From positions 1-55,481 of the forward strand of contig CASDQF010000036.1 in NCBI GenBank assembly GCA_949282845.1: a stretch of 55,481 nucleotides of DNA, given 5' to 3'. The translations under genes and the position numbers were made by a program. Position 1 is the first letter of the stretch, and each line of letters begins with the position of its first letter. Shown here piece after piece: positions 1-54,621 of the stretch. Source of the DNA: an uncultured Alphaproteobacteria bacterium. GTDB taxonomy: Bacteria > Pseudomonadota > Alphaproteobacteria > CAAHEQ01 > UBA3637. The notes beneath the pieces are model-generated. The model was not told where the DNA came from. It saw nothing but the letters and a program-made list of their open reading frames with translations, and did not search any database.

Positions 1-44
1 CCCAGCATCTCTATCATACTGCGGCCAGTTTGTTTCTTTTTCAT
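1..44 (-). CDS. 5' end of a prepilin-type (class III signal peptide) pilin-like gene, cut by the window edge
   Basis: Reverse complement of 1..44 reads MKKKQTGRSMIEMLG, the same N-terminal motif as the ORFs at 14512, 52116 and 52543. An AAGGAG RBS (plus-strand ctcctt 51..56) lies 6 nt upstream of the ATG. Confidence 0.55.
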   Translation of the reverse strand, partial: MKKKQTGRSMIEML

Positions 45-3637: not shown

Positions 3638-3997
3638 ATGGCTAGAGTAAAAAGAGGCGTTGTTTCTCACGCTAAACATAAAAAAATCTTGGATTTGGCA
3701 AAAGGCTATAGAGGCCGCAACTCCAAAGTTTACACTGTTGCAAAAGAAAAAGTTGAAAAAGCTTTAGTTTATGCCTATCGTGATCGCCGTCGGAAGAAAA
3801 GTAATTTCCGCTCTTTGTGGATTGCTCGTATCAACGCAGGCGTCCGGGCTGAAGGCTTAACTTATTCCCGATTTATGAACGGGCTGAGACAGGCCGGAAT
3901 TGAACTGGACCGCAAGGTTTTAGCAGATATTGCTTTAAATGATGCGACAAGCTTTGCCGGTTTGGTTGAAAAAGCCAAGACGGCATTAAAAGTGTAA
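3638..3997 (+). CDS. rplT: 50S ribosomal protein L20
   Basis: [18 protein letters not shown]...GYRG...[10 protein letters not shown]...LWIARINA, the typical L20 sequence. Confidence 0.97.
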
Positions 3998-4020
3998 AAA
4001 AAACACGCTAAAAAAAAGAA

Positions 4021-4050
4021 AAGGCCGTTGCAAAAAACGGCCTTTTTTAT
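4021..4050 (+). terminator. rho-independent terminator or attenuator between rplT and pheS
   Basis: Stem aaggccgtt / aacggcctt with loop gcaaaa, followed by ttttat. Confidence 0.75.
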
Positions 4051-4086
4051 TATGCTGTAGTATCCAAAAATAAAGGGGATATAAAA

Positions 4087-5172
4087 ATGAACAAAGTAGA
4101 GGAACTTAAACCACAAATTTTAACAAGAATCAATGAAGCGTCTTCATTACAAGTATTAGAAGATATCCGCGTTTCCGTTCTAGGGAAAAAAGGTGAAATA
4201 ACAGAAATGATGAAAACACTTGGCAGTTTACCTCCCGAAGAAAGAAAACTGGCCGGACAAGTTTTAAATGAATTTAAAACTGAAATCACGACAGCTCTAG
4301 ATGCTAAAAAAACAGCTTTAGAAGAAGCTGAATTAAACAGACGTTTAGCTACTGAAACCATAGATGTGACACTTCCGATTCGTCCCAAACAACAAGGGAG
4401 AGTTCATCCTGTTAGCCAGGTGATGGAAGAAATGCTCACAATCTTTGCTCAAATGGGCTTTGATTTAGCCGAAGGACCTGATATAGAAGATGATTGGCAT
4501 TGTTTTGAAGCTTTAAATTTTCCCCCTTCTCACCCGGCACGTCAAATGCAAGCAACTTTCTTTATGGAAAACACAGATGGAAATGTCTTAAGGACACATA
4601 CCTCTCCTGTTCAAATTCGTGCGATGGAGAATCAAAAACCACCTATTCGAATTGTTGCCCCCGGGAGAACTTATCGCTGCGACTATGATATGACACACAC
4701 ACCAATGTTCCATCAAATTGAAGGACTCGTGATTGACACAGAAACAAACATGGGACATTTAAAAGGTGTTCTAGCTGATTTTATGAAAAAGTTTTTTGAA
4801 GTGGATGATGTTCCTATTCGTTTTCGTCCTTCTTTTTTCCCTTTTACAGAACCTTCTGCGGAAGTTGATATTGGTTGTTCACGTAAAAACGGTGAATTTA
4901 AAATTGAAAGCGGTAAAGGTTGGATGGAAGTATTAGGATGTGGAATGGTTCATCCTAATGTTCTTAAGAATTGTGGTTTAGATCCAGAAGTTTATCAAGG
5001 TTTTGCCTTTGGGTTTGGCGTAGATCGTTTTGCAATGTTAAAATATGGCATTCCAGATTTACGCGGTTTCTTTGATGCCGATATGCGTTGGCTAAAACAT
5101 TATGGTTTTGTCCCATTGGATATTCCGACGATTACAAGTGGTTTAAGCGCGAATGGAGGCGCAAAAAGATGA
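4087..5172 (+). CDS. pheS: phenylalanine--tRNA ligase alpha subunit
   Basis: Class II aaRS motifs: [55 protein letters not shown]. Confidence 0.97.
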
Positions 5173-7529
5173 AATTTTCTCTTTCTTGGTTAAAAGATTA
5201 TTTAGATACAACAGCATCTGCAACAGACATTTCTGAGACACTGACTCGTATTGGATTAGAGGTTGAAGAAATGACAGACACAGCTTCAGCGTTAAAAGAT
5301 TTTATCGTTGGGGAAATCAAAACTGTTGAAAAGCATCCTAATGCAGACAAGCTGAATTTACTGACTGTCTGGACAGGAAAAGAAACTTTACAAATTGTTT
5401 GTGGAGCTCCTAATTGCCGTGTTGGTATGAAAAGTGTTTTAGCCTTACCCGGTGTTATGATTCCGAAATATGGTGAAAAACTAGAAAAAGGTGTTATTCG
5501 TGGTATAGAAAGTCAAGGAATGATGTGTGCGGAAGATGAACTTTGCCTTGGCGCAGACCATACCGGCATTATTGACTTAAAAACAGACTTACCTGCAGGA
5601 ACTCCTTTTGTGGATATTTTGCAACCGGATATCATCTTCGATGTAAATGTAACTCCTAATCGAGGTGATTGTTTTGGCGTTAAAGGAATTGCCCGAGATT
5701 TAGCTGCTGCCGGCTTAGGAACACTCAAAACAACAGATGTGTCTCCAGTTCAGGGGACATTCAAAAGCCCGGTTAATGTCACAATTGAAACGCCAGATTG
5801 CCCCGTATTCGTTGCTCGTTACATTAAAGGAGTTAAAAATGTTGAAAGCCCTGCTTGGCTGAAGAAAAAACTAATTGCAGCTGGCTTACGTCCTATTTCA
5901 GCATTAGTAGATGTGACCAACTATTTCAATATTGGCGAAAATAGACCTCTCCATGTCTTTGACGCAGATAAATTAACAGGAAATTTATGTGTTCGCTCAG
6001 CAAAAGACGGAGAAAAGTTAGACGCACTAGATGAACGAATTTATACTTTAAAAGAAGGCATGGTTGTTGTCGCGGATGAAACAGGACCTCAGAGTATCGC
6101 CGGTGTTATGGGAGGCACTCCGACAGGATGTAGTTCTGAAACAGTTAATGTTGTTTTAGAATCGGCCTATTTCAATCCGATTTCCATTGCAAAAACAGGC
6201 CGTGAATTAAATGCTGAATCAGATTCCAGAACACGTTTTGAAAGAGGAATTGATCCTAAAGCAACTATTCAAGGAGCAGAAAATGCAACACGGTTAATTT
6301 TAGATATTTGTGGAGGAGAAGCTTCTGAACTTGTTATTGCTGGTGCTGAACCCAATGAAAAACGTATCATCAATTTCAATTGGAGTACTGTCAACAAACT
6401 GTGTGGCATGGATATTGCAAAAGAAAAGATGATTGAAATTTTAACTCATTTAGGGTTTGAAATCAGTGGTAATGCTATCACTGTTCCTTCATGGCGTTTA
6501 AATGATATTCGATATCCGGCCGATATTGTAGAAGAAATCGTTCGTATTTACGGCTACGATTCTTTACCTGCTTTATCCATGAAGACAGATGAAATTATTA
6601 CATCAACTTTAAAGCCTCATCAAAAAAATGAGATTGCTGTCCGTAGAGCTTTAGCAAATGAGGGCTTATGTCAGGCCATCACTTGGTCATTCATGGACAG
6701 TCGTCTTGCAGCTTTATTTGGTTCAAAAGGTTTAAAAATTTTAAATCCAATTGCTTCTGATTTAGATGAAGTACGTCCTTCTCTTGTTCCGAACTTATTA
6801 TCCGCTGTTAAACGAAATAATGACAAAGGAATTGCTGATGTCGCTTTATTCGAAGTCGGACCAGCATTTACAGGTGTTCAACCAGGAGAACAAAAAACAA
6901 TTGCCTGTGCTATTCGTTCAGGAAAAACAGGACCACGTCATTGGGCAGAAAAAGAACGCTCTATTGATGCTTTTGATGCAAAATCTGATGCTATTGCAGT
7001 TTTAGCAGCCGTTAACGCACCTATTACAAGCCTCCAAGTATTTAAAAATGCACCGGCTTGGTATCATCCTGGTCGTTCCGGTGCTTTATGCTTAGGAAAA
7101 ACTGTCCTAGCTGTCTTTGGAGAATTACATCCGAAGATTTTAAATGCATTCGATGTAAAAGGACCTGTTGTCGCATGTGAAGTCTATCTAGATGCTGTGC
7201 CTCCTTCTAAAGGGAAGACAAAAGCTAAGGCCTTAAAAGTTTCTGCATTAATGCCATTAACTCGAGATTTTGCTTTCGTAATGGATCAAAATGTAGAAGC
7301 TTCAAAACTTTTAAATGCTATCAAAGGCTTGGATAAAGAGTTAATTGAGGATGTTCGTATCTTTGACGTTTACCAAGGAGACAAACTCCCAGAGGGAAAA
7401 AAATCTCTTGCCGTAGAGGTTGTTATTCAACCTAAAGAAAAAACGCTCACAGATGAAGAAATCGACTTATTATCTCAACGCATCATTGGTATCGCTGCCA
7501 AAGTTGCAGGTGCCGAACTAAGAGCATAA
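5169..7529 (+). CDS. pheT: phenylalanine--tRNA ligase beta subunit
   Basis: Starts [12 protein letters not shown] with an ATGA overlap on the pheS stop. Has the tRNA-binding domain (EKHPNADKL) plus B3/4 and B5 regions and a C-terminal anticodon-binding-like domain. Confidence 0.97.
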
Positions 7530-7650: not shown

Positions 7651-8264
7651 ATGCCTGTAAAACAAGTTTATCATCTTCTTATTTTTATTCACTAATTTAC
7701 ACACTTATTTTTATATTTGCATGTGAATCTCTTTCAATAGCAAAAACGATTAATCGAAAAGCTTACAAAGTTTGCAAAGAACAAGAAACTGCCTATTGGA
7801 ATGGATCTTCTGCCGGTTGTTGTGATACGACAGCTAATTATGCTTTAGTCAAAAATTATATTGATGGTCAAACAGAAACACCTTATATCTGTTGCAAGCT
7901 TCAGAAAGACGACGGAGACTATACTGATTATACAGTAGTAGGTGCAGTCAATGGAACGTGTTGTGGTGGATATGCTAAAAATGAGTACAGCATGATAACC
8001 CCAGATGATGCTGATCCAAGCAAAGAAGCAATAGTTCATTTTTCACATACAGAAACTTTTTCCGTTCAAAAAAATCAAGGGGGTTATTATTGTGGATCAG
8101 AATATAAATACATTATAACATATAAAGGAGAAACAACCACTAATGTAGAAACAAAGCTTGTCACACCAGAAAAATGGTGTTTTTACAATTATCTTGATCC
8201 AAAAGGAAATTATTGTGTATGTAGTTCAATTGGTGATCCCGAAAGTGGAGAAATTTGTAGCTAA
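7651..8264 (+). pseudogene. Cys-rich secreted protein with its signal peptide split by a 1-nt frameshift; the ATG-initiated remnant ORF is 7992..8264
   Basis: ATG at 7651 with RBS AAGAGGAAAAGGAAA gives MPVKQVYHLLIFIH then a stop. The frame of ORF 7992..8264 is stop-free back to 7587 and reads LIYTLIFIFACESLSIA|KT... followed by CC-doublet-rich sequence. It has no ATG, GTG or TTG before 7992. One extra T in the T5 run at 7682..7686 would join the two frames. Confidence 0.5.
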
Positions 8265-11278: not shown

Positions 11279-13072
11279 ATGAAATGGATTTTTACATTTT
11301 TTATTCTTTTCTTCTCTTTTTGCGCTACCGCGCAGGAAGAACAATTACCATCTTCTATCTTATCTGTTGCTGAATTTGTGGAAAAAACAAAAAATCAACT
11401 TCAAGCAGCTCAAAAAAGCTCTTCTGAAGATCTTTATCAACAAGCTCCTTCTTGGACAACCGCGCTTTATGCTGATGAGAAATCGATGAGCCCTATTACA
11501 GGGACAGAAGGAGCGACTCCTTGGACACAAACAACATTCGGTCGCATCCGCTTACTGACATGTCATACAGGAACTCAAAATTTAAATAATCTATGGTTAA
11601 CCTTAGATACCGAAATGAAAACAGGATGGTCTATTCACATTCCTCAACTCGTTATCCGTCCAACACCACAAATTACAAAAGTACAAGTTTTTATTCCTAA
11701 ACTCCCTCCTTTCGATGGCAAAACACCTAAGCAGTTTGTTAAAAGCGCCTCTTTCCCTGTCCATTTACAGTTCACCGAAACTGAAGCACCTTTAACCATA
11801 AATATGGACACAAGTTTTGAAGCCTGTTTTCAAAATAATTGCCAAATAATCCAATCACCGATTTCAATCACTCTTCCTCATACGCAAAGTAAACCTTCTC
11901 CTTTTTGCCCATATATCCGTCGTTCAATGACGTATGTACCTCCAGAAGCCTCAAAAGAAGAGTTATTTTTTTTCCTAACACCGGAAAATTATTTACAAAT
12001 TCGGGCCTCTTTTGAAAAAAAAGCTATTCAACCTCAAGTCTTATTGACACAAGGAAAGCAAATTTTTTATCAGATGTTATCTCAAGAAATTGCTCAAAAT
12101 AAAGTTAATATAACTCTTTTGCCTCAAAATTGGTCTCCGACTGATCCCATTACGGTGACAATCCTAAACAGACGACAAATAATGGAAAAAACAATGATTC
12201 CTTCCCCGGGAAGAGCACCAAATTTGTCTTTCTCTTTTCCTCAACCTCATAAAACATTACCTTTTATTCTTTTCTTTTTAACAACTCCTTTAATGTCTTA
12301 CCTTCTACATGTTTTCTTTAAAAATGAATACATAACTCGTCGAAAAAGTCTTTTCATTGCTTGCGTTTATATTTTAAGTGGTGTTTTATTCCAATTTCTT
12401 TTTCATTATCTATCTAATGAACATCTTTATGAGTCGCTATTTTGGGCTTGGTCAATGGGCATAATTTTCATATTGGCTGCTTTTTTCATACGACATTTGA
12501 CTCTTTTATCCTTTATTACCCTAACTTTTTTAACTCCTCTCATCTATCTTTATCCTCTGATACAATGCGCTGAAAATTGGCTTTTTATTCAACTAGCTTG
12601 TATAGCTGCTCTCCCTTATTTATTATTTGCTTACGCCCCATCATTAGGCGTTAACTGGAGTCGCTTCACACAAAAGTTATCCCCTTTATGGAAACGCCTC
12701 CCTCTACTAGCAAATGCTGCCGTTTGGGCGTTGATACTACTTTGCTTAGTTTATCACACACTTGTGCCTACCCAAATATCTCAAAAAAACCCTCAAGCAG
12801 AACTAACACTTATCAGCCCACCTTGGCATATCAAAGGAACTCTTTTTGATATAACCGCCACACAATTAAGCACGGGAAAAGAGTTACAAAAGAAAGGCAT
12901 ATTATCAATCAAAAGACAAACCCCTCAATCAAAAATAGATATTCAAACAGAAACAATACCTCTTTTCCCTTTTGCTCTTTTAAAAGGGGAAAAACTATCA
13001 GAACCACTTATTTTAAAACCGACTTTATCAACTTATCAACTGACAGATTATTTTAATTCTGCTTTTAAATGA
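11279..13072 (+). CDS. DsbD/ScsB-like membrane protein: N-terminal DsbD-alpha-like domain, polytopic membrane core, degenerate thioredoxin-like tail
   Basis: Signal peptide MKWIFTFFILFFSFCATA|QEE. GWSIH..P and EACFQNNCQIIQSP resemble the DsbD N-terminal domain. Several hydrophobic helices span aa 320-500. Positions expected to read TPC.LP and WC..C read TTPLMS, LTPLIY and PPWHIKG. Confidence 0.45.
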   Translation: MKWIFTFFILFFSFCATAQEEQLPSSILSVAEFVEKTKNQLQAAQKSSSEDLYQQAPSWTTALYADEKSMSPITGTEGATPWTQTTFGRIRLLTCHTGTQNLNNLWLTLDTEMKTGWSIHIPQLVIRPTPQITKVQVFIPKLPPFDGKTPKQFVKSASFPVHLQFTETEAPLTINMDTSFEACFQNNCQIIQSPISITLPHTQSKPSPFCPYIRRSMTYVPPEASKEELFFFLTPENYLQIRASFEKKAIQPQVLLTQGKQIFYQMLSQEIAQNKVNITLLPQNWSPTDPITVTILNRRQIMEKTMIPSPGRAPNLSFSFPQPHKTLPFILFFLTTPLMSYLLHVFFKNEYITRRKSLFIACVYILSGVLFQFLFHYLSNEHLYESLFWAWSMGIIFILAAFFIRHLTLLSFITLTFLTPLIYLYPLIQCAENWLFIQLACIAALPYLLFAYAPSLGVNWSRFTQKLSPLWKRLPLLANAAVWALILLCLVYHTLVPTQISQKNPQAELTLISPPWHIKGTLFDITATQLSTGKELQKKGILSIKRQTPQSKIDIQTETIPLFPFALLKGEKLSEPLILKPTLSTYQLTDYFNSAFK

Positions 13073-13500
13073 AGCTCTTCAATAAAACGACGAGCCAAAA
13101 AATCGACGCGTTCATTTTCCGGATGACCATTGTGTCCTTTAACCCAAACCCAAGTCAAGCGATGTGGAAGACTAAGCTTTAATAGTTCTTGCCATAGCTC
13201 AATATTTGCTACCGGCTTTTTAGCTGAACTTTTCCAATTTTTAGCAACCCATCCGGGAAGCCATTGAGTAAATCCTTTTAAAACATAAGTGCTATCTGTA
13301 TAAATCGTTGCATCAACAGGCTCCTTAAGCTGTCGAAGAGCTTCAATAACCGCCGTTAGCTCCATCTGATTGTTAGTCGTTTCCTCAGAACCACCAAACA
13401 TTTCTTTTTCTTTTCCCTTATAGCGCATCAAAACCCCCCACCCACCGGGTCCTGGATTACCGCTACAAGCACCATCTGTATAAATCTCTACTTTCTTCAT
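13048..13500 (-). CDS. rnhA: ribonuclease HI
   Basis: IYTDGACSGNPGPGGWG, TTNNQMELTA, YTDSTYV, WVKGHNGHPENERVD. Its 3' end overlaps the convergent gene by 25 nt. Confidence 0.95.
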   Translation of the reverse strand: MKKVEIYTDGACSGNPGPGGWGVLMRYKGKEKEMFGGSEETTNNQMELTAVIEALRQLKEPVDATIYTDSTYVLKGFTQWLPGWVAKNWKSSAKKPVANIELWQELLKLSLPHRLTWVWVKGHNGHPENERVDFLARRFIEELHLKAELK

Positions 13501-13761
13501 GTCTTGAAGATGACCGATTTTTTACCTATATTCAAGTATAAAGATAAAAAATCTTATTTTAGGTCATATACTTTACACCATAATCTAAAATTTAGATTGT
13601 CTTATCTCTAAAAAAATAGCAATATAACAGGAAGAAAATATTATAAAATTCCCATTCTTATTGGATGTTTTTTATAAGCTAATGCATTTTAATATAAATT
13701 TTTTTTATTTTTTTTTAAAAAATACAAGTATAAACACTTTCGAGAAATGAAATAACATAAG

Positions 13762-14130
13762 ATGATAAACAACATGACAAAAGAAAATTTTAGCAAAGTA
13801 TTGGGAAATCGCATTCGGGAGCTCAGGAAGATGAATGGGATGAGCCAATTGGATCTCGCTACAGAAATGGATGTAACCTTAAATACTGTTTCTGGAATCG
13901 AGTGTGGAAAAACTTCACCAAAAATTGAAACATTATGTCGAATGGCATTAGCTTTAGACATTCCATTAGAAGACTTTTTCTCTTTTCCGGAACAATTTCC
14001 TCGTGATAAAAATGTCCGGCGTAAAGTTGAAAACCTTGCTCGTCAACTATTAATATATGACGAGGATTTTATCGACTTAATCATTGAAAACATTCATACG
14101 ATGATGAAAATTAAAGGACCTAGAAAATAG
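13762..14130 (+). CDS. XRE-family helix-turn-helix transcriptional regulator
   Basis: LGNRIRELRKMNGMSQLDLATEMDVTLNTVSGIECGKTSPKIETLCRMALALDIPLEDFF is a classic HTH_3 pattern. Met5 (13774) is an alternative start. Confidence 0.8.
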   Translation: MINNMTKENFSKVLGNRIRELRKMNGMSQLDLATEMDVTLNTVSGIECGKTSPKIETLCRMALALDIPLEDFFSFPEQFPRDKNVRRKVENLARQLLIYDEDFIDLIIENIHTMMKIKGPRK

Positions 14131-14140
14131 GTCCTTTTTA
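14113..14140. terminator. hairpin shared by the convergent XRE gene and the nrdD-like mini-ORF
   Basis: Stem aaaggacct / aggtccttt followed by ttatttc. It overlaps the XRE stop codon. Confidence 0.55.
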
Positions 14141-14144
14141 TTTC

Positions 14145-14330
14145 TCAAGCGACTTTCTTAGGCGTTATTTTAGAAATATGAAGAGCTTTATTTTCGCTGA
14201 AACAGACACGTTCGGCATATTCGCTTTGCTTTCCTTTATTAAAATGATTAACAGGTCTAAAATATCCCATCACACGCGTCCACACTTCACAAGGTTGACG
14301 TTCTTCATCTTTTAAATGAACAGCACACAT
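14145..14330 (-). CDS. free-standing 61-aa protein resembling the C-terminal glycyl-radical segment of anaerobic ribonucleotide reductase NrdD
   Basis: TRVMGYFRPVNHFNKGKQSEYAERV matches my recollection of the NrdD C-terminal pattern RV.GY..(P)...(F/W)N.GK..E...R. A strong RBS GGGAGG lies 6 nt before the ATG. There is no upstream NrdD coding sequence, since 14331..14511 is AT-rich and non-coding. Confidence 0.55.
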   Translation of the reverse strand: MCAVHLKDEERQPCEVWTRVMGYFRPVNHFNKGKQSEYAERVCFSENKALHISKITPKKVA

Positions 14331-14511
14331 TTTTTCCTCCCTAAAATTTACTTCATTTTACAATATAACATAAAGAGTTAAAAAAAACGTTAATTTAAAA
14401 ATCTTTAAAACTTTATAGTTATGTAGATAAGTATTGTTTTTCCTTCTTAAATGATATATATCTTTATTAACTTAGGTAATAAAAAATATTTTTATCATTA
14501 GGAGAAAAGAT

Positions 14512-16185
14512 ATGCCTGATAAAAAAAACACACTTCAAATTGGACGGAGTATGATTGAAATCATCGCTGTTTTAGCGATTATTGGTATTTTAACTGCTCT
14601 TAGCCTAACTTTATATAGCTATTTAATCAACAAACACCGCGCTAATAACACAATTTATGATACAATGTTACGTGCTACTAATGTCCCAATGTATTATGAG
14701 ACATATAAAGAGGCAAACGAAGGTACTCTTTTTAATTTCCCTGACCTAGGCCCAACGACACCAGACTCCTATCCAACTCAAGCCATTCGTGAACCCTTAA
14801 CATCTCCCTACATTTTCCGAGTAGAAGTAAGTGCTATTCCTAATGAAGTTTGTCGACATTTGATTGATTTAAATCCAACTGACATAGATCTTATCAAAAT
14901 AAACTCAACAGAAAGGAGCAAACCAGACTCCACATCCGCAGATTGCTCGAAACAAAAATTAAATACCTTCTATTTTTATTTCGAACCGACAACCCCCTCT
15001 TCGCCTGAAGAGGATGACGACATTCAGGAAGGAGGCTGCACAGAAGATTCTTGTGAAAATTGTCATTTCTGTGATTCAGAAAGTGGGCAGTGCGTGCGTG
15101 AAGATTGCCCAATTCTAACCTGTCCGACAGGTTCTTATGCAACAGGTGTCGATGATTGCAACTGTATTATATCTTGTCAAGATTGCCCCGAGTTTACGCC
15201 ATGTAATACTTGTTTTGATACTCTATATGACGCAAAAGGTTGTCCCACGGGTTGTACTCCCAGTACCTCTCATGAATGTTTATGTCCGGATGAACCTGTG
15301 TCTTGTAACCCTTTGTGCGAGACAGAAGGACAAGATAATAACGGCTGTCGAACATGTACTTCTTTATGTACAGAATCATGCACAGTCTGTGGAGAAAATG
15401 GATGTGAAGCAAGTGATGCTCCAGAATGTCAGTGTCCGGAAGGATGTGATGCTTGTGAACAATGCGTCAACGGTGTATGTCAATTTATGTGTGGAGCAGA
15501 GGAAGTTTGCAACAGCGAAGGAACATGCGTGCACTGTCCGTTAATTTTAAATGAAGGCAGAACTTGTCCTGATAATGGTCAGGGCGCTCTCTACATTACT
15601 TGGTGTCATAAAGAATCTTTAGGAGATAACAGCTGTGGTTGTTGCATATCTTGTCCTGGAGAAGGAGTAGCTTATGCTTTCAAACGAAATCCAGAGTCGC
15701 CAGAAGAGTGTTGTTTTGAAGAAGTTATTCAAAAATCAAATGGAGAATGGATGTGCTGCTCATCAGATTCATCTCTTTATGATATGAAATATGCATCTGG
15801 TTACCGCTTTGACAGCAATGATAATCCTTATCTTGTAAGCCCAGCTCTTATTGATACTTTGTGTTGTAAAGCATCACCTCTTTGTCAATGGGGCTTGGAT
15901 TACAAAGGAATAGAGATTTGTTATAGGCCTTATCAATGCTGCCCAGAAGGTTCAAAACCGCATATTATTTCGATGGTTGATAGAGGAGAACATGACATCG
16001 AATTTTTTTCAGGATGCTGTGCTGGTACAGTATCATTAAAATATTCTTGCGATTATACAGATTCTGATCCATCCAGTCCCTGTTATTATATTAGCGGCGG
16101 TCATGCTGAGGCTTATACTTGTTCTACTGGGTGGATAGAAGATTGCTCAACTTGTACTTCCTCAGGCTTTTATACGGTAGAATAA
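14512..16185 (+). CDS. prepilin-type N-terminal domain protein fused to a very cysteine-rich C-terminal domain (557 aa)
   Basis: MPDKKNTLQIG|RSMIEIIAVLAIIGILTALS has Glu at +5. A pilin-sized module with 2 Cys occupies aa 1-160, followed by the linker EPTTPSSPEEDDD. From aa 176 the sequence is dense in C-x2-C and CC motifs, with 60 Cys in total by hand count. RBS is AGGAGA. Confidence 0.75.
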   Translation: MPDKKNTLQIGRSMIEIIAVLAIIGILTALSLTLYSYLINKHRANNTIYDTMLRATNVPMYYETYKEANEGTLFNFPDLGPTTPDSYPTQAIREPLTSPYIFRVEVSAIPNEVCRHLIDLNPTDIDLIKINSTERSKPDSTSADCSKQKLNTFYFYFEPTTPSSPEEDDDIQEGGCTEDSCENCHFCDSESGQCVREDCPILTCPTGSYATGVDDCNCIISCQDCPEFTPCNTCFDTLYDAKGCPTGCTPSTSHECLCPDEPVSCNPLCETEGQDNNGCRTCTSLCTESCTVCGENGCEASDAPECQCPEGCDACEQCVNGVCQFMCGAEEVCNSEGTCVHCPLILNEGRTCPDNGQGALYITWCHKESLGDNSCGCCISCPGEGVAYAFKRNPESPEECCFEEVIQKSNGEWMCCSSDSSLYDMKYASGYRFDSNDNPYLVSPALIDTLCCKASPLCQWGLDYKGIEICYRPYQCCPEGSKPHIISMVDRGEHDIEFFSGCCAGTVSLKYSCDYTDSDPSSPCYYISGGHAEAYTCSTGWIEDCSTCTSSGFYTVE

Positions 16186-16222
16186 TGGGGAAAAGTAGTG
16201 AACAATTATCAAAATGATGCTT

Positions 16223-16241
16223 TGAGGCTTTTAAAGCCTCA
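16223..16241 (+). terminator. hairpin after the Cys-rich pilin gene
   Basis: Palindrome tgaggct-tttaa-agcctca 38 nt after the stop codon. There is no clean T-run. Confidence 0.35.
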
Positions 16242-16490
16242 TAATAATTCTCTATGATATTTCGTTCAAATAGAGGGAATTCTGAGAAAACTTTTAAAAA
16301 TTTTAAAGAGTTATAAAATAGAGCTTTACTCAATAAGTCTGTTTTATTCCAGAACCTAAGGTTAAATAGAGTGTTTATTCTGAAAGAAAACCACAGAGAT
16401 AATTTGAATAAAACATAAAAAAATACATATAACTACATTATAAAAATTACATCTATAGAAAAAGTTCAAAAAGAAAATATTGGCATTGTT

Positions 16491-16515
16491 AAAAAACCCC
16501 TGTAAAAAACAGGGG
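16491..16515 (-). terminator. rho-independent terminator after ptsN
   Basis: Stem cccctgt / acagggg. On the minus strand it is followed by TTTTTT (plus-strand A-run 16491..16496). Confidence 0.7.
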
Positions 16516-16532
16516 CTTTTCATAAATTTCAC

Positions 16533-16988
16533 CTATTCATCAGCATCTGCTGTTTGAATAACTTTCAACGTTTCTTCTTTTGTTTTCGCGGAACGCAGCT
16601 GAGCACAAACATCTTCATTACGTAATAATTTAGAAATTCGTGCCAAAGCTTTTAAATGATCTGCACCAGATTCTTCCGGCACTAATAAGAAAAAGATTAA
16701 ATCTACGGGCTTTCCGTCTATTGCCTCGAAGTCCAAAGGTTTTGTCCGCATAAAAGCACAAAATAAATCTTTTAAGCCTGGTAACCTGGCGTGAGGAATA
16801 GCAACACCTTTTCCAATTCCTGTTGTTCCCAAACGTTCTCTTTCAATTAAAGCATCAAAAACCGCTTGATGTTCACATCCAGTTAAAGGAGCAGAAACCT
16901 CAGCCACTTCTTCGAGTGCTTGCTTCTTTGAAGCCGCCTCCACATCTAAAAAGACAAGATTAGGCTTTAAAATATCCACAATTTTCAT
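16533..16988 (-). CDS. ptsN: PTS IIA-like nitrogen regulatory protein PtsN (EIIA-Ntr)
   Basis: ERERLGTTGIGKGVAIPHARL contains the active-site His motif. 151 aa, located immediately downstream of hpf. Confidence 0.92.
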   Translation of the reverse strand: MKIVDILKPNLVFLDVEAASKKQALEEVAEVSAPLTGCEHQAVFDALIERERLGTTGIGKGVAIPHARLPGLKDLFCAFMRTKPLDFEAIDGKPVDLIFFLLVPEESGADHLKALARISKLLRNEDVCAQLRSAKTKEETLKVIQTADADE

Positions 16989-17636: not shown

Positions 17637-18302
17637 TTACGAGAGACGCCCTCCACGTCGCTGAAAAAGTCTAATTTCAGTGCGCCGACGTATGCGAAAC
17701 TTATCATTGATTTGATTATACAATTCCCAATCTTCCGGAGAAAAATTATTTTCTCTAAATTGTACCTCCCATACATGATGGTTGGCGCGTATTAAATGAG
17801 AAGTGCGTAAAAGAGAGGTTTTAGTAGCTCCTATATTTTTAGCTTCAATTCTATTCCATATCACATCAGGACGCATCGCCTCATCCAAAAAGAGCTGCAA
17901 ACCTTGATCTCCTAAAGGATTCCCTGAGACTGTCAAACGACCTACTCTTTTAGAGCTCAATACTTGGGCTAAGGCACCGGCAGAAGCTGCCGTCATACGA
18001 CAATTTTCTAAGTCAATTGTTGTACAATGCGTATTATTTTTTAAACATAAAGCCAATTTCAAAATCATATTATCTTCAATTTGTTGCCCAGCCCAATTTA
18101 AGCTATCTAAACCTGTATCATTCTGAGCTAATTGATTCAGCTGATATTTTAGTTGTTCCGAAGACAATTTAGGGATATATTCTTTACATTGTTTTTGATG
18201 GATTTCTTTTTCTTCCTGATCTGTTTTTTCTTTTTCAATTAAAGCTTTTCGTTCTGTTTCAGTCATATTGACCATATATTGAAATTTTAAACCAGATGTC
18301 AT
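17637..18302 (-). CDS. leucine-rich repeat protein of the ribonuclease-inhibitor (RNI) type
   Basis: About 28-aa repeats: LDSLNWAGQQIEDNMILKLALCLKNNTH / CTTIDLENCRMTAASAGALAQVLSSKR / VGRLTVSGNPLGDQGLQLFLDEAMRPDV. Basic C-terminal tail, no signal peptide. Confidence 0.6.
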   Translation of the reverse strand: MTSGLKFQYMVNMTETERKALIEKEKTDQEEKEIHQKQCKEYIPKLSSEQLKYQLNQLAQNDTGLDSLNWAGQQIEDNMILKLALCLKNNTHCTTIDLENCRMTAASAGALAQVLSSKRVGRLTVSGNPLGDQGLQLFLDEAMRPDVIWNRIEAKNIGATKTSLLRTSHLIRANHHVWEVQFRENNFSPEDWELYNQINDKFRIRRRTEIRLFQRRGGRLS

Positions 18303-52115: not shown

Positions 52116-52520
52116 ATGAAAAATATTCAACAAGGTCGTTCTATGATTGAAATGCTCGGCGTTTTAGCCATTATCGGTGTTTTGTCCATCGGTGGCTTGG
52201 CCGGTTACACAATGGCGATGAACCGCCACAGAGCAAATCAAATCTTGGACTATGTCTCTCGTGCTGTTGTGATTGCTCAAACAAAAGGTGATGGTGCACA
52301 AGCTATTAATGATACTTGCCAAAACATTTTGGATGGTGAAGCAGTTCCTGTCTCCGGTATGTCTTGCCAAGTAAATCGTACAGCTGGTATCGATAATAAC
52401 ACAACCGTAGCTGTTGGTGGCGTTAATGCACGTATTGCAGCTGCTTTAGCAAACCGCTCCGGCAACCAAGTAACGATTGCTTCTACTTCAAATGGTGCTG
52501 ATTTCACATTCATGAACTAA
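52116..52520 (+). CDS. prepilin-type N-terminal domain pilin-like protein (134 aa)
   Basis: MKNIQQG|RSMIEMLGVLAIIGVLSIGGLAGY has Glu at +5 and a hydrophobic helix. Two Cys (DTCQ...MSCQ). C-terminal block RIAAALANRSGNQVTIASTSN. Confidence 0.75.
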   Translation: MKNIQQGRSMIEMLGVLAIIGVLSIGGLAGYTMAMNRHRANQILDYVSRAVVIAQTKGDGAQAINDTCQNILDGEAVPVSGMSCQVNRTAGIDNNTTVAVGGVNARIAAALANRSGNQVTIASTSNGADFTFMN

Positions 52521-52542: not shown

Positions 52543-52950
52543 ATGAAAAATACTCAACAAGGTCGTTCCATGATTGAAATGCTTGGTGTTTTAGCCATTA
52601 TCGGTGTTTTGTCCATCGGTGGCTTGGCCGGTTACACAATGGCGATGAACCGTCACAGAGCAAATCAAATCTTGGACTATGTCTCTCGTGCTGTTGTTAT
52701 TGCTCAAACAAAGGGCGATGGAACACAAACAATTTCAAATGAGAATTGCGATGACATTTTGGATGGCGAAGATGTTCCAGTCTCCGGTATGGGTTGCACA
52801 GTAAATAAAGCAACAGGTTATGCAAATATCACTGTTTCTGTAACAAATGTTAACAGCCGTATTGCAGCTGCTTTAGCAAATCGTTCCGGTAACCAAGTAA
52901 CGATTACATCTACTTCAAACAGTGCTGCTTTCACTTTTGCAAGTTCATAG
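52543..52950 (+). CDS. prepilin-type N-terminal domain pilin-like protein (135 aa), paralog of 52116
   Basis: MKNTQQG|RSMIEMLGVLAIIGVLSIGGLAGY. The first roughly 59 aa match the upstream copy except one residue. Divergent middle and a conserved C-terminal block. Confidence 0.75.
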   Translation: MKNTQQGRSMIEMLGVLAIIGVLSIGGLAGYTMAMNRHRANQILDYVSRAVVIAQTKGDGTQTISNENCDDILDGEDVPVSGMGCTVNKATGYANITVSVTNVNSRIAAALANRSGNQVTITSTSNSAAFTFASS

Positions 52951-53068: not shown

Positions 53069-54121
53069 ATGAACACAGCTTTAGATCTTCTTAACAAAGG
53101 CGTTGAATACGCGCAAAATAAAAATTACATTCAAGCGGAAAAATGTTTCCGTCAATCCCTAGAACTGGATCCGAATAATCCTGTTACTATTCGAAATCTT
53201 GGAAATGCCTGCGCGGCGGATGGCCGAATGACGGAAGGGCTTGTCTATCTGACACAATACTTGGATATGAGACCTGACGACTTAGAAACCATGGGACATG
53301 TCCTTTACTTAAAGTATAATTACTGCATTTGGAATGGATTAGAAAGAATGCAGGAACGCCTTAAAAAAGGATTACAAGAACATACTCTGCAATCCGAACC
53401 TAAACTTTTATTTTTGGGAATGACTTTCGAAGAACGCTATCACTATATGACGAAGCTAGCCGCAGAGAACAAAAAACTTTCTCTTTTGCGCAAAGAAAAA
53501 CCTTTCTCATTACCAACTTATCAACACGACAAGTTAAAAGTCGGTTTTTTCACAACAGATATAGGACCTTCTCCTTGTGGTTTTGTCATTGCCAGTTTAT
53601 GGGAAAACTTATCTCACGATGATTTTGAATGGCATTGTTTTTCTTGCCGAAAACTTTCCGATAAGCCTGAAGATGCTCCCTTAATAAAGCGGCACAAGGC
53701 GGCTTTTGATTTTTTCCATGACGTCTCGAATATAAAAGACTTCCGCATGATGGCTGATACCATAGCAAAAGAAGAAATTGATATTTTAATTGATGTCAAT
53801 ATGCTTATCAATTCAATGTATCCGGCTTTATATTACAAGCCTGCACCGATTATCGTAAATTATTTAGGCTATCCTTCGACAACAGGCTTGCCTTGGTATG
53901 ATTATATGATTGCAGATGCTTGGACCGTTCCTTCAGAAAAAGAACGTTGGTTTACAGAAAAAATTATTCGTATGCCTCATTGTTATCATTGTGTTGACAC
54001 AAACCCTGAAACTTATCCAGGGCTTGCACCTAAATCAATCCTAGGACTTCCAGAAAAAGGAACTATTTTTGCCTGTTTAAAATTACACCTCACTATTGGG
54101 ATATGTGGATGCGCATTTTAA
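53069..54121 (+). CDS. TPR plus N-terminal part of a GT41 (OGT/SPINDLY-like) glycosyltransferase, 5' segment of a frameshifted gene
   Basis: TPR-like N-terminus (AEKCFRQSLELDPNNP...). KLKVGFFTTDIGPSPCGFV and PAPIIVNYLGYPSTTGLPWYDYMIADAWTVP parallel the OGT motifs RVGYVSSDFGNHPTSHL and PAPIQ..WLGYPGT.G....DY.I.D. The frame drifts into non-homologous sequence after ...GTIFACL at about 54079. Confidence 0.75.
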   Translation: MNTALDLLNKGVEYAQNKNYIQAEKCFRQSLELDPNNPVTIRNLGNACAADGRMTEGLVYLTQYLDMRPDDLETMGHVLYLKYNYCIWNGLERMQERLKKGLQEHTLQSEPKLLFLGMTFEERYHYMTKLAAENKKLSLLRKEKPFSLPTYQHDKLKVGFFTTDIGPSPCGFVIASLWENLSHDDFEWHCFSCRKLSDKPEDAPLIKRHKAAFDFFHDVSNIKDFRMMADTIAKEEIDILIDVNMLINSMYPALYYKPAPIIVNYLGYPSTTGLPWYDYMIADAWTVPSEKERWFTEKIIRMPHCYHCVDTNPETYPGLAPKSILGLPEKGTIFACLKLHLTIGICGCAF

Positions 54122-54621
54122 AGGCTGTTCCTGACAGTATCCTTTGGTTACGTTCTTTTAATTTTGAAACTGATGAAAAATTTAAAGAAGAAGCTAAAAA
54201 ACGGGATGTTAATCCCAACAGAATTATTGTATTGCCTAAAATGCCAACTCATGCAGACTTTCTGTATTGCTTCAAAAACGCTGATTTATTTTTGGATACA
54301 GAAATGTACAATGCGCATTCAACTGCTTTAGAAAGTCTTTTCTGTGGTGTCCCCCTTATTACTTGTCCAGGAGACTCTTATGCCTCACGCGTTTCATCCA
54401 GTATGCTGCATGCCTTCGGATTAGATGAAATGATTTGTAAGACAGAAGATGAATATGAAAAAAAAGCAATTGAACTTGGTCTTAATACAGAAAAGCTCAA
54501 TTGTCTTAAAGCAAAAACCGTTTCGTTAATGACACAAAATAATCCACTGTTTGATATGAAATCTTATGCACGAGATTTTGAAAAGCTTTTACGACAAATC
54601 GCACCCGCAAAGAATTCTTAA
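54103..54621 (+). CDS. C-terminal part of the same GT41 glycosyltransferase, 3' segment in the -1 frame
   Basis: The frame is open from about 54077 and reads KITPHYWDMWMRILKAVPDSILWL...NRIIVLPKMP...ADLFLDT..YNAHSTALESLFCGVPLIT.PGDSYASRV. This parallels OGT YKIDP....W..IL..VP.SVLWLL...RIIF.P....ADV.LDT...NGHTT..D.LW.G.P.VT..G..LASRV. Confidence 0.75.
   Translation: MWMRILKAVPDSILWLRSFNFETDEKFKEEAKKRDVNPNRIIVLPKMPTHADFLYCFKNADLFLDTEMYNAHSTALESLFCGVPLITCPGDSYASRVSSSMLHAFGLDEMICKTEDEYEKKAIELGLNTEKLNCLKAKTVSLMTQNNPLFDMKSYARDFEKLLRQIAPAKNS

Follow-up and report, generated by a model that had tools for sequence, protein, structure and literature searches.

We analysed a stretch of DNA of 55,481 nucleotides (nt; hereafter the window) from an uncultured Alphaproteobacteria bacterium of the UBA3637 lineage (assembly GCA_949282845.1, contig CASDQF010000036.1, positions 1 to 55,481, forward strand), and focused on a gene at 14512..16185 (+) in which a predicted type IV pilin module is joined to a cysteine-rich domain. 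The open reading frame (ORF) list and its translation give a complete gene for a protein of 557 amino acids (aa), with its stop codon at 16183-16185 and a Shine–Dalgarno sequence, AGGAG, at 14500..14504 (+), 7 nt 5′ of the ATG. A first-pass annotation, made from the sequence alone, had described this ORF as a pilin-like N terminus fused to a domain packed with cysteines and had counted 60 of them by hand; the recount is exact, with 2 cysteines (C114 and C145) in aa 1–165 and 58 in aa 176–557. Cysteine makes up 15.2% of aa 176–557, compared with 1.5% of the other long ORFs of the window. Seven sequences on around 11 contigs, from independent assemblies, match the gene at 90% identity or more. 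Its GC content resembles that of the rest of the genome, and therefore gives no pointer to a recent eukaryotic origin.

The protein begins with a leader peptide, MPDKKNTLQIG (aa 1–11; 14512..14544, +), delimited by comparison with paralogues as a class III signal ending in an invariant Gly. The mature N terminus, running from R+1 through E+5 into the α1 helix (aa 12–61; 14545..14694, +), was placed by structure prediction with AlphaFold2 (AF2), profile comparison and hhalign. The pilin globular head (aa 62–157; 14695..14982, +), defined by alignments, AF2 and Foldseek, carries an invariant Cys114–Cys145 pair and an NPTDID motif. An acidic, Pro-rich linker follows (aa 158–175, EPTTPSSPEEDDDIQEGG; 14983..15036, +), for which the predicted local distance difference test (pLDDT) score is below 50 at aa 161–173. 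The remaining 382 aa (aa 176–557) form the extra module, which the positions of its cysteines divide into a first Cys-rich subdomain with 40 Cys, mainly in CxxC and CxC motifs (aa 176–376; 15037..15639, +), and a CC-doublet subdomain with 18 Cys and six CC pairs 15–36 residues apart (aa 377–557; 15640..16182, +). The segments that had been quoted in the first-pass annotation as linker (EPTTPSSPEEDDD) and as Cys repeat (CPTGSYATGVDDCNC) lie at aa 158–170 and aa 204–218, and the switch to CC doublets that it had noticed near the C terminus consists of six doublets between aa 377 and 503. An inverted repeat 39 nt past the stop codon, the palindrome GAGGCTTTTAAAGCCTC (16224..16240, +), is on reading of the sequence a possible weak terminator; a terminator scan made no call there.

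Judged by sequence and structure prediction, the N terminus is a genuine type IV pilin module. A class III signal consists of a hydrophilic leader ending in Gly or Ala and 20–25 mainly hydrophobic residues, often with Glu5 (PMC10191384). The proposed signal MPDKKNTLQIG|RSMIE, with Glu at +5, is present as it had been quoted, and the mature stretch that follows the leader reads RSMIEIIAVLAIIGILTALSLTLY. Also as claimed, the KHRAN motif is shared with two small pilins encoded elsewhere in the window (NKHRAN in the target, NRHRAN in the pilins of 134 and 135 aa). Alignments of the family to which the target belongs show that G-1, R+1, E+5, C114 and C145 are invariant, and NKHRAN, NVPM and NPTDID are invariant or almost so among 110 homologues of 360–880 aa. 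Between paralogues of single genomes, DNA identity is random (27–40%) upstream, jumps to 70–89% precisely at the G-1 codon, remains high over the next ~200 nt and is random again by about +480 nt. The leader thus varies freely and the mature N terminus is constrained, which fits cleavage at G|R.

When a profile of the module is compared with solved type IV pilins, the two align in register (9laa PilA, E 5e-4; geopilin, E 6e-4), with GRsmiEmlgvLAiiGvLs of the profile matched to GFTLIELMIVVAIIGILA and to the GFTLIE of PilA and geopilin. PF07963 (N_methyl) is detected at E<0.01 in 12 of 37 family members, the best at 2.6e-5. The AF2 model has a 48-residue α1 helix (aa 14–61, pLDDT 78–93) and β-strands at aa 89–157 that form a small sheet head, helix and head together having pLDDT values of 70–93. 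This is the lollipop fold of pilins, with a long α1 packed on a β-sheet head and usually a C-terminal disulfide, for which the invariant C114–C145 pair is the candidate. In Foldseek searches of the PDB, the top 11 matches of the pilin module were all type IVb pilins, led by the CofA pilus (9iuf_A; probability 1.00, TMt 0.51, E 0.01) and including TcpA (8uhf and 3hrv) and further CofA structures (3s0t and 3vor). Taken separately through structure prediction, Foldseek and profile comparison, as had been proposed in the first-pass annotation, the N-terminal part therefore has type IVb pilins as its best match.

On the same kinds of evidence, the Cys-rich module is a domain without sequence or fold relatives outside its family. 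It had no match in Pfam or NCBIfam at E<=1 and no relative among PDB sequences at E<=5, and an exhaustive phmmer search of 1.84 billion representatives returned the target itself and one spurious match, an unrelated metallophosphatase-repeat protein (P0111). Foldseek with two AF2 models gave no significant fold match for the module (best E 0.37). No known bacterial domain family of mundane function, which the first-pass annotation had named as a possible outcome, was thus found by Pfam, NCBIfam, PDB sequence, HMMER or Foldseek searches. The furin-like or variant-specific surface protein (VSP)-type character that had been suggested for the repeats comes down to a loose resemblance, as the target has no signature or fold match of this kind. 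The weak Foldseek matches were to NELL2 epidermal growth factor (EGF) repeats, the cysteine-rich domains (CRDs) of the tumour necrosis factor receptor (TNFR) and Pfs25, and EGF-type Pfam matches (EGF_2, EGF_Teneurin and EGF_TEN) occurred in a few of 110 paralogues (2 of 37 on a rescan). When modelled alone, the module is built of small β-hairpins, predicted with confidence over its first ~80 residues (pLDDT ~90) and with moderate confidence over the rest; those at aa 180–250 have pLDDT values of 84–95.

The distal part of the module has a repeat of the type CC-x13-24-CC, which reaches 26 copies in the family member P0005. The same CC-doublet repeat is carried by a Sec-signal protein of 235 aa without a pilin module (locus L087, 3046..3753; E 7e-6 to P0005), from which we conclude that the module is an independent unit grafted onto a pilin. 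A relative of the 235-aa protein may also be encoded in the window itself, at around 7651..8264 (+). A Shine–Dalgarno sequence and an ATG at 7651 open a frame of 14 codons before a stop, and, once the frame has shifted by one base within a T-run, a frame of 186 aa follows that includes a lipobox-like IFIFAC and CC doublets at intervals; this sequence is homologous to the gene for the 235-aa protein (E 3e-10) and may be a frameshifted, possibly phase-variable, gene for a secreted Cys-rich protein. Direct similarity of the window ORF 7704..8261 to the target was considered and set aside, as it is not significant (E 0.57) and appears only through the 235-aa protein.

The target is one member of a large family. 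A homology search yielded 110 proteins that share the first ~165 residues and the same architecture, and a scan of reference genomes with the pilin module yielded 79 loci, all but one in a handful of metagenome-assembled genomes (MAGs) of uncultured gut Alphaproteobacteria. Together with the loci, there are at least 142 distinct complete proteins in which the fusion recurs, which answers the homologue survey called for in the first-pass annotation. A catalogue of pilin-type N termini in the window and the loci gives 10–25 or more members per genome. Mature proteins are 336–1,223 aa in length and contain 21–184 Cys. The number of cysteines is even in 129 of the 142 proteins (binomial p=3.5e-25), and this parity implies that the cysteines are essentially all paired and that the domain folds in an oxidizing, extracytoplasmic compartment; probably, then, all form disulfides. 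The C termini are acidic (D+E 15% versus K+R 4%) and have much Gly, Ser and Thr, and every member has a flexible linker at the same place, either Gly/Ser-rich or Pro/Asp-rich.

The pilin module is constant across the family and the C termini are hypervariable: clustering those of 50 complete genes at >=40% identity gives 28 groups, and homology among copies is confined to the 5′ part. Every copy has its own leader and start codon and usually its own intrinsic terminator. A design of silent cassettes and gene conversion like that of pilE/pilS was rejected, as homology is 5′-only and what the copies have in common on the 3′ side are terminator hairpins of a generic kind. No recurrent partner gene, such as a chaperone, Dsb protein or regulator, lies beside the family members, whose neighbours are housekeeping genes except for the gene of a small lectin-like protein at five loci. 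The remark in the first-pass annotation that no described family is like this one holds in that the family is unnamed in every source, and does not hold in that modular pilins are already established (PMC8179133).

Machinery of the type IVb class is encoded in a close relative. The MAG E27__bin304 carries an allele of the target (L001) and, on contig CALXXX010000040.1 (L068/L081), a pilus operon of seven genes, which encode, in order, a 396-aa protein without a family, a TcpQ-domain protein (PF10671, 3e-17), a secretin, a PAP_PilO protein of the R64 type (PF06864, 8e-27), a PilP-sized protein, a T2SSE ATPase (2e-67) and a T2SSF platform protein (2.5e-26). A family-member pilin gene, truncated by the end of the contig, follows the seventh gene. 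The assembly genes that the first-pass annotation had said to look for (TcpQ, secretin, PilO, ATPase and platform) are therefore found in this MAG. The seven-gene operon shows no GspC/L/M, PilMNOP or Tad markers, and we assign it to the type IVb class, and not to type II secretion systems (T2SSs), type IVa pili or Tad pili, because of the TcpQ and R64-type PilO proteins (definitions in PMC10191384). The leaders are 6–9 aa in the small pilins and 11 aa in the target, so the long leader on the major pilin that is listed for type IVb is not seen here; that feature is not discriminatory (PMC10191384). The operon is kept in a more distant Alphaproteobacteria MAG, in which it lies between rplS and ftsJ and is therefore chromosomal and vertically inherited; no pilin gene follows the platform gene there.

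Two further features were noted beside the operon. In E27__bin304, genes for TrbC/VirB2-like, VirB3-sized and VirB4 proteins of a type IV secretion system (T4SS) and for an SLT lytic transglycosylase (L081, 5988..9808 (-) and 3837..5555) lie divergently upstream of it, an arrangement that recalls the IncI1 thin-pilus/T4SS pairing and that is absent in the more distant MAG (L083). Near the pilus operon at the L028 locus, a 570-aa protein (12694..14406, -) has another pilin-like N terminus (..QGSLMVEVLAVLGLIALI, with Glu at +5), few Cys and no Pfam match; it is a candidate initiator minor pilin of the CofB/TcpB type.

The window also encodes candidate major subunits: two tandem small pilins of 134 and 135 aa (52116..52520 and 52543..52950, +) with an α1 of the form GRSMIE...NRHRAN. 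Aligned by hhalign, the family module and the small pilins match with a probability of 99.8% (E 9e-29) over 52 columns only, which span the end of the leader and α1; their heads are unrelated. More than 1,125 homologues of the small pilins, 130–160 aa in length, are conserved over their full length, and small pilins are also present in the MAGs that have the operon. A near-identical polymerization helix, differing heads and one small, ubiquitous member are what commonly relates a major pilin to its accessory pilins, and an accessory role is therefore favoured for the large proteins. On this analysis, the 134/135-aa pilins are probably the major subunit and the target is most likely an accessory, tip-type pilin. 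Directly after the small pilin genes, at 53069..54621, lies a gene for a protein with tetratricopeptide repeats and a glycosyltransferase-family-41 (O-GlcNAc-transferase-like) domain, the coding sequence being split over two ORFs that overlap (53069..54121 and 54103..54621). Its product could be a pilin glycosyltransferase, and the split could reflect a frameshift or a pseudogene.

The reading that we prefer, to which we give a probability of roughly 0.6, is that the target is a modular type IVb-class pilin of the accessory or tip type, drawn from a variable repertoire of adhesins or antigens. The class III signal would take the prepilin into the inner membrane and, as the pattern of conservation suggests, a prepilin peptidase would cleave after Gly11 to leave Arg at +1 and Glu at +5. 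In the periplasm, the 382-aa C-terminal module would, as the Cys parity suggests, be oxidized to ~29 disulfides, with one more in the pilin head. The TcpQ, secretin, PilO, ATPase and platform proteins, the genes of which are observed in the near-conspecific MAG, would assemble a filament with a shaft of small 134/135-aa pilins, and the large Cys-rich pilin would join it in an accessory capacity, the tip being its likeliest place, as it is for CofB and TcpB in type IVb pili. The flexible acidic linker may then project the disulfide-knotted module as a protease-resistant head for ligand binding or antigenic display, and the independently transcribed paralogues with unrelated C-terminal modules would be a repertoire of alternative heads. 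Such cassettes may be exchanged between lineages by recombination, to which a repeat-bounded 2.5-kb island of near-identity at the target locus points.

Several points weigh against this reading, beginning with the pilin module itself. The pilin-signature scores of the target alone fall under curated cut-offs (PF07963, E 0.32 and 11.1 bits against a cut-off of 21.2; TIGR02532, 10.7 against 16.3; ppdD/GspG models, E 0.02–0.2). Arg at +1 is atypical for pilins, and its presence in place of Phe probably lowers the N_methyl score. The AF2 model, which was built from 37 sequences, has a mean pLDDT of only 64, and the pilin-fold matches in Foldseek, although consistently ranked, have marginal E-values (0.01–0.5). 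The low scores would suit a generic Sec signal-anchor that resembles a pilin by chance, in which case the target would be an ordinary periplasmic or membrane Cys-rich protein. We regard this as very improbable: the G-R-S-M-I-E register is invariant in more than 140 large proteins and is found in 118 of 120 small pilins, conservation starts at the G-1 codon, the profile matches solved pilins and the fold matches type IVb pilins, and a family member lies inside the pilus operon. A generic Sec or membrane anchor, which the first-pass annotation had named as the alternative, is thus ruled against by the invariant G-1, R+1, E+5 and head cysteines, by the register of the pilin profile and by the type IVb fold matches.

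The next points concern the machinery. The MAG in which the operon was found is a near-conspecific of the organism of the window and not the same assembly (flanking genes 71–92% identical). Neither an A24 prepilin peptidase gene nor a GxGDxK motif was found in ~1 Mb of DNA (the window and 89 loci, ~10% of each genome), and 10 kb on each side of the operon, the small pilin gene and the operon of the distant MAG gave no Peptidase_A24 gene either. The lack of a peptidase gene in the sampled DNA is in keeping with a pilin module that serves export, as a pseudopilin or as an anchor in the membrane, the Cys domain being either released, by a T2SS-like piston or by proteolysis of the linker, or kept in the periplasm on an inner-membrane tether. 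Such a role would also agree with a linker that is exposed and accessible to proteases in the model, and with the occurrence of the CC-doublet module behind Sec or lipoprotein signals, which makes display on a pilus dispensable for the function of the module. Against it, the machinery has type IVb hallmarks (TcpQ and PAP_PilO) and not the GspC/L/M or GspH-K proteins of a T2SS, a mere anchor would not need a conserved globular head with a D-region-type disulfide, and an α1 near-identical to that of the small pilins argues for co-polymerization. We consider export of this kind unlikely.

The third group of points concerns the place of the protein in the filament. The slot after the platform gene holds a family member and not a small pilin in three genomes (loci L028, L066 and L068), and at L028 this gene is complete and encodes a Cys-rich protein of 472 aa. 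In the R64 pil operon, that slot is the position of the major pilin. The Cys-rich proteins might accordingly be the major shaft subunits, with tethered domains facing outward and different paralogues giving differently coated ‘bottle-brush’ pili; the flexible linkers of all members and a pilin head conserved within the family, as expected of a subunit that packs against itself, would agree with this. However, modules of 380–1,060 aa on each subunit would need to pass through the secretin and to find room around a thin filament; a small pilin with the same α1, much more widespread and conserved, is present in two tandem copies in the window; and the operon of the distant MAG has no pilin gene after the platform gene. 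A shaft made of Cys-rich subunits is accordingly unlikely. For the accessory pilin that we prefer, tip location, ligand binding and expression of the target are entirely what we infer from these comparisons.

At the locus itself, the target behaves as a recombining cassette. Between the window and L001, the flanking genes are 87.7% (infC), 82.3% (rnhA), 89.5% (ptsN), 88.9% (hpf) and 71.3% (a leucine-rich repeat (LRR) protein gene) identical, whereas ~14200..16700, which comprises the target and its own intergenic regions, is 96–100% identical. The target gene is 98.3% identical to the L001 allele at the nucleotide level; the two proteins differ at 13 aa and share all 60 Cys. Direct repeats bound the island (14309-14337 and 16649-16677). 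At the left junction (14309..14345), recognized by comparison with L087, CTTTTAAATGAACAGCAC, which derives from the ‘..HLK’ site of ptsN, is joined to ACATTTTTTCCTCCCTAAA; the right copy (16649..16677) lies inside the 3′ part of ptsN, is the ‘..HLK’ site itself and coincides with the right edge of the island relative to L001. L087 is an independent assembly of the strain of the window (flanks 99.6–100% identical) and has a second tandem unit, made up of the gene for the 235-aa CC-doublet protein and a divergent duplicate of the ptsN 3′ end, with the junction sequence on both sides. A genome-wide mobile element was rejected as the source of the junction repeat, which occurs only at the target locus.

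The simplest reading of these sequences is that units consisting of a promoter region, a Cys-protein gene and a ptsN 3′ end have been accreted and exchanged by recombination, and that the target allele was recently transferred between lineages that are ~12% diverged. The island could in principle be a chimeric metagenome assembly; an identity of 98% rather than 100%, and edges that coincide with repeats, argue against this. A 61-aa ORF at 14145..14330 (-) is a stand-alone C-terminal glycyl-radical piece of the anaerobic ribonucleotide reductase NrdD (PF13597, 2.6e-9), the first seven codons of which (MCAVHLK) derive from the ptsN-derived junction repeat, and it is therefore a chimeric remnant at the edge of the cassette.

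In concept, the target comes nearest to the modular pilins, and it has the layout of PilB and PilC of Streptococcus sanguinis, which carry a von Willebrand factor A module and a lectin module, respectively (Raynaud et al. 2021; PMC8179133). As in these proteins, a small N-terminal pilin module (aa 1–157) is followed by a short linker (aa 158–175) and a bulky module of a kind not confined to pili (aa 176–557); in PilB and PilC the module is a proposed or shown adhesin on the filament and also exists outside pilins, as does the CC-doublet part of the target. Unlike in PilB and PilC, the module of the target is unclassified, disulfide-dense (15% Cys) and without a signature, and the host is a diderm alphaproteobacterium with machinery of the type IVb kind. 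In further contrast to the modular pilins of the 2021 survey (264 architectures, InterPro-based; PMC8179133), there are 10–25 or more paralogues per genome with unrelated modules.

CofB of the CFA/III pilus of enterotoxigenic Escherichia coli and TcpB of the toxin-coregulated pilus of Vibrio cholerae are large, tip-located type IVb minor pilins with extra C-terminal domains that follow a linker (PMC10191384 and PMC8179133); as whole systems, theirs are the nearest counterparts. Their α1 is compatible with that of a small major pilin; the target likewise shares its α1 with the small pilins, and its pilin module is closest to the CofA/TcpA class. CofB and TcpB are single-copy, have β-repeat or β-sandwich domains and are encoded inside the operon, whereas the target family is multicopy, scattered, hypervariable and Cys-rich, and no sequence similarity of the family to CofB or TcpB was detected.

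Variation of a pilin C terminus on a constant N terminus has several precedents. PilV, the adhesin of the R64/IncI1 thin pilus and a functional analogue of the target, is a pilin-like protein of a type IVb pilus and has a constant N terminus and alternative C termini, set by site-specific inversion of the shufflon, that determine binding specificity. PilO-type (PF06864), secretin, ATPase and platform genes occur here in the R64 order, and T4SS genes adjoin the operon in E27__bin304; unlike in PilV, the variation comes from many full-length genes, and the modules are Cys-rich and hundreds of residues long. No recombinase or sfx-type repeats, as in the R64 shufflon, were seen. As in Neisseria pilE/pilS, a constant pilin N terminus is combined with a varied C terminus and recombination is involved, but the target family has no promoterless silent cassettes. 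With the Cys-rich repeats of eukaryotes (EGF/teneurin/tenascin repeats, TNFR CRDs, Pfs25 and Giardia VSPs) the target shares dense CxxC and CxC motifs and predicted disulfide-stapled β-hairpins, and the family follows a VSP-like logic, being a multigene family with one constant anchoring part and variable Cys-rich ectodomains; unlike those repeats, the target has no Pfam, PDB-sequence or significant fold match.

The family scales the modular-pilin principle up to a genomic repertoire, with at least 28 unrelated modules and up to 184 Cys. It is set apart from the systems compared above by the disulfide-dense, unclassified modules, the scattered multigene amplification, the invariant Arg+1 and the probable exchange of cassettes. 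A more tentative extension, which we hold to be possible and no better than that, is a VSP-like system on a type IVb pilus, in which dozens of independently regulated genes would supply interchangeable, disulfide-armoured heads, cassettes would sweep between lineages through recombination at conserved anchors, the repertoire would set contacts with hosts or partners (possibly together with the adjacent T4SS, as the R64 shufflon sets mating specificity) and serve evasion of immunity or phages, and the invariant Arg+1 would be a new pilin N-terminal chemistry.

Modular pilins are how simple filaments gain functions, and the known examples are single genes with recognizable domains. If the modules described here are adhesins or antigens, they would be prime candidates for roles in gut colonization, partner choice and immune evasion, and would represent a new family of small disulfide-stabilized folds on an unusual Arg+1 pilin N terminus. 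The host group consists of poorly known, uncultured gut Alphaproteobacteria, and the family is thus of relevance to specialists in pili and in the gut microbiome.

The family also accounts for frequent breaks in assemblies of such genomes, as MAG contigs often end inside the conserved pilin module. The left edge of the window is one such end: it cuts the start of a further paralogue with a pilin-type N terminus (..MKKKQTGRSMIEML; 1..26, -). Owing to these breaks, the family is probably under-counted. Several family N termini in the MAG E02__bin238 (L058, L059, L071, L078 and L079) lose their frame after ~20–40 codons (one example is ..GRSMLEMLGVLAIVGIYLCHEQTQ), through either pseudogenization or misassembly of the repeated module. 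At five loci (L028, 11295..11726; L010, L015, L017 and L047), a family gene is closely followed by one for a small secreted protein of ~140 aa that has no Pfam match and bears a motif resembling C-type lectins, NWWSA..WC.A.GRHLATM.E.CP; the family member P0104 ends in the same motif.

Elsewhere in the window, a 221-aa LRR-like protein (17637..18302, -) is only 71% identical between the lineages, and a 597-aa protein with a signal peptide and multiple transmembrane segments but no family (11279..13072, +) is only 78% identical. Because neighbouring housekeeping genes are 84–92% identical, both are candidates for fast-evolving envelope or surface proteins; annotation of the latter as DsbD-like was dropped, as there was no family match even at E 0.5. 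In a related MAG, the small pilin gene adjoins an [FeFe]-hydrogenase/NuoF-like cluster (L085/L086, 5401..9515), which fits a strictly anaerobic, fermentative lifestyle of the lineage.

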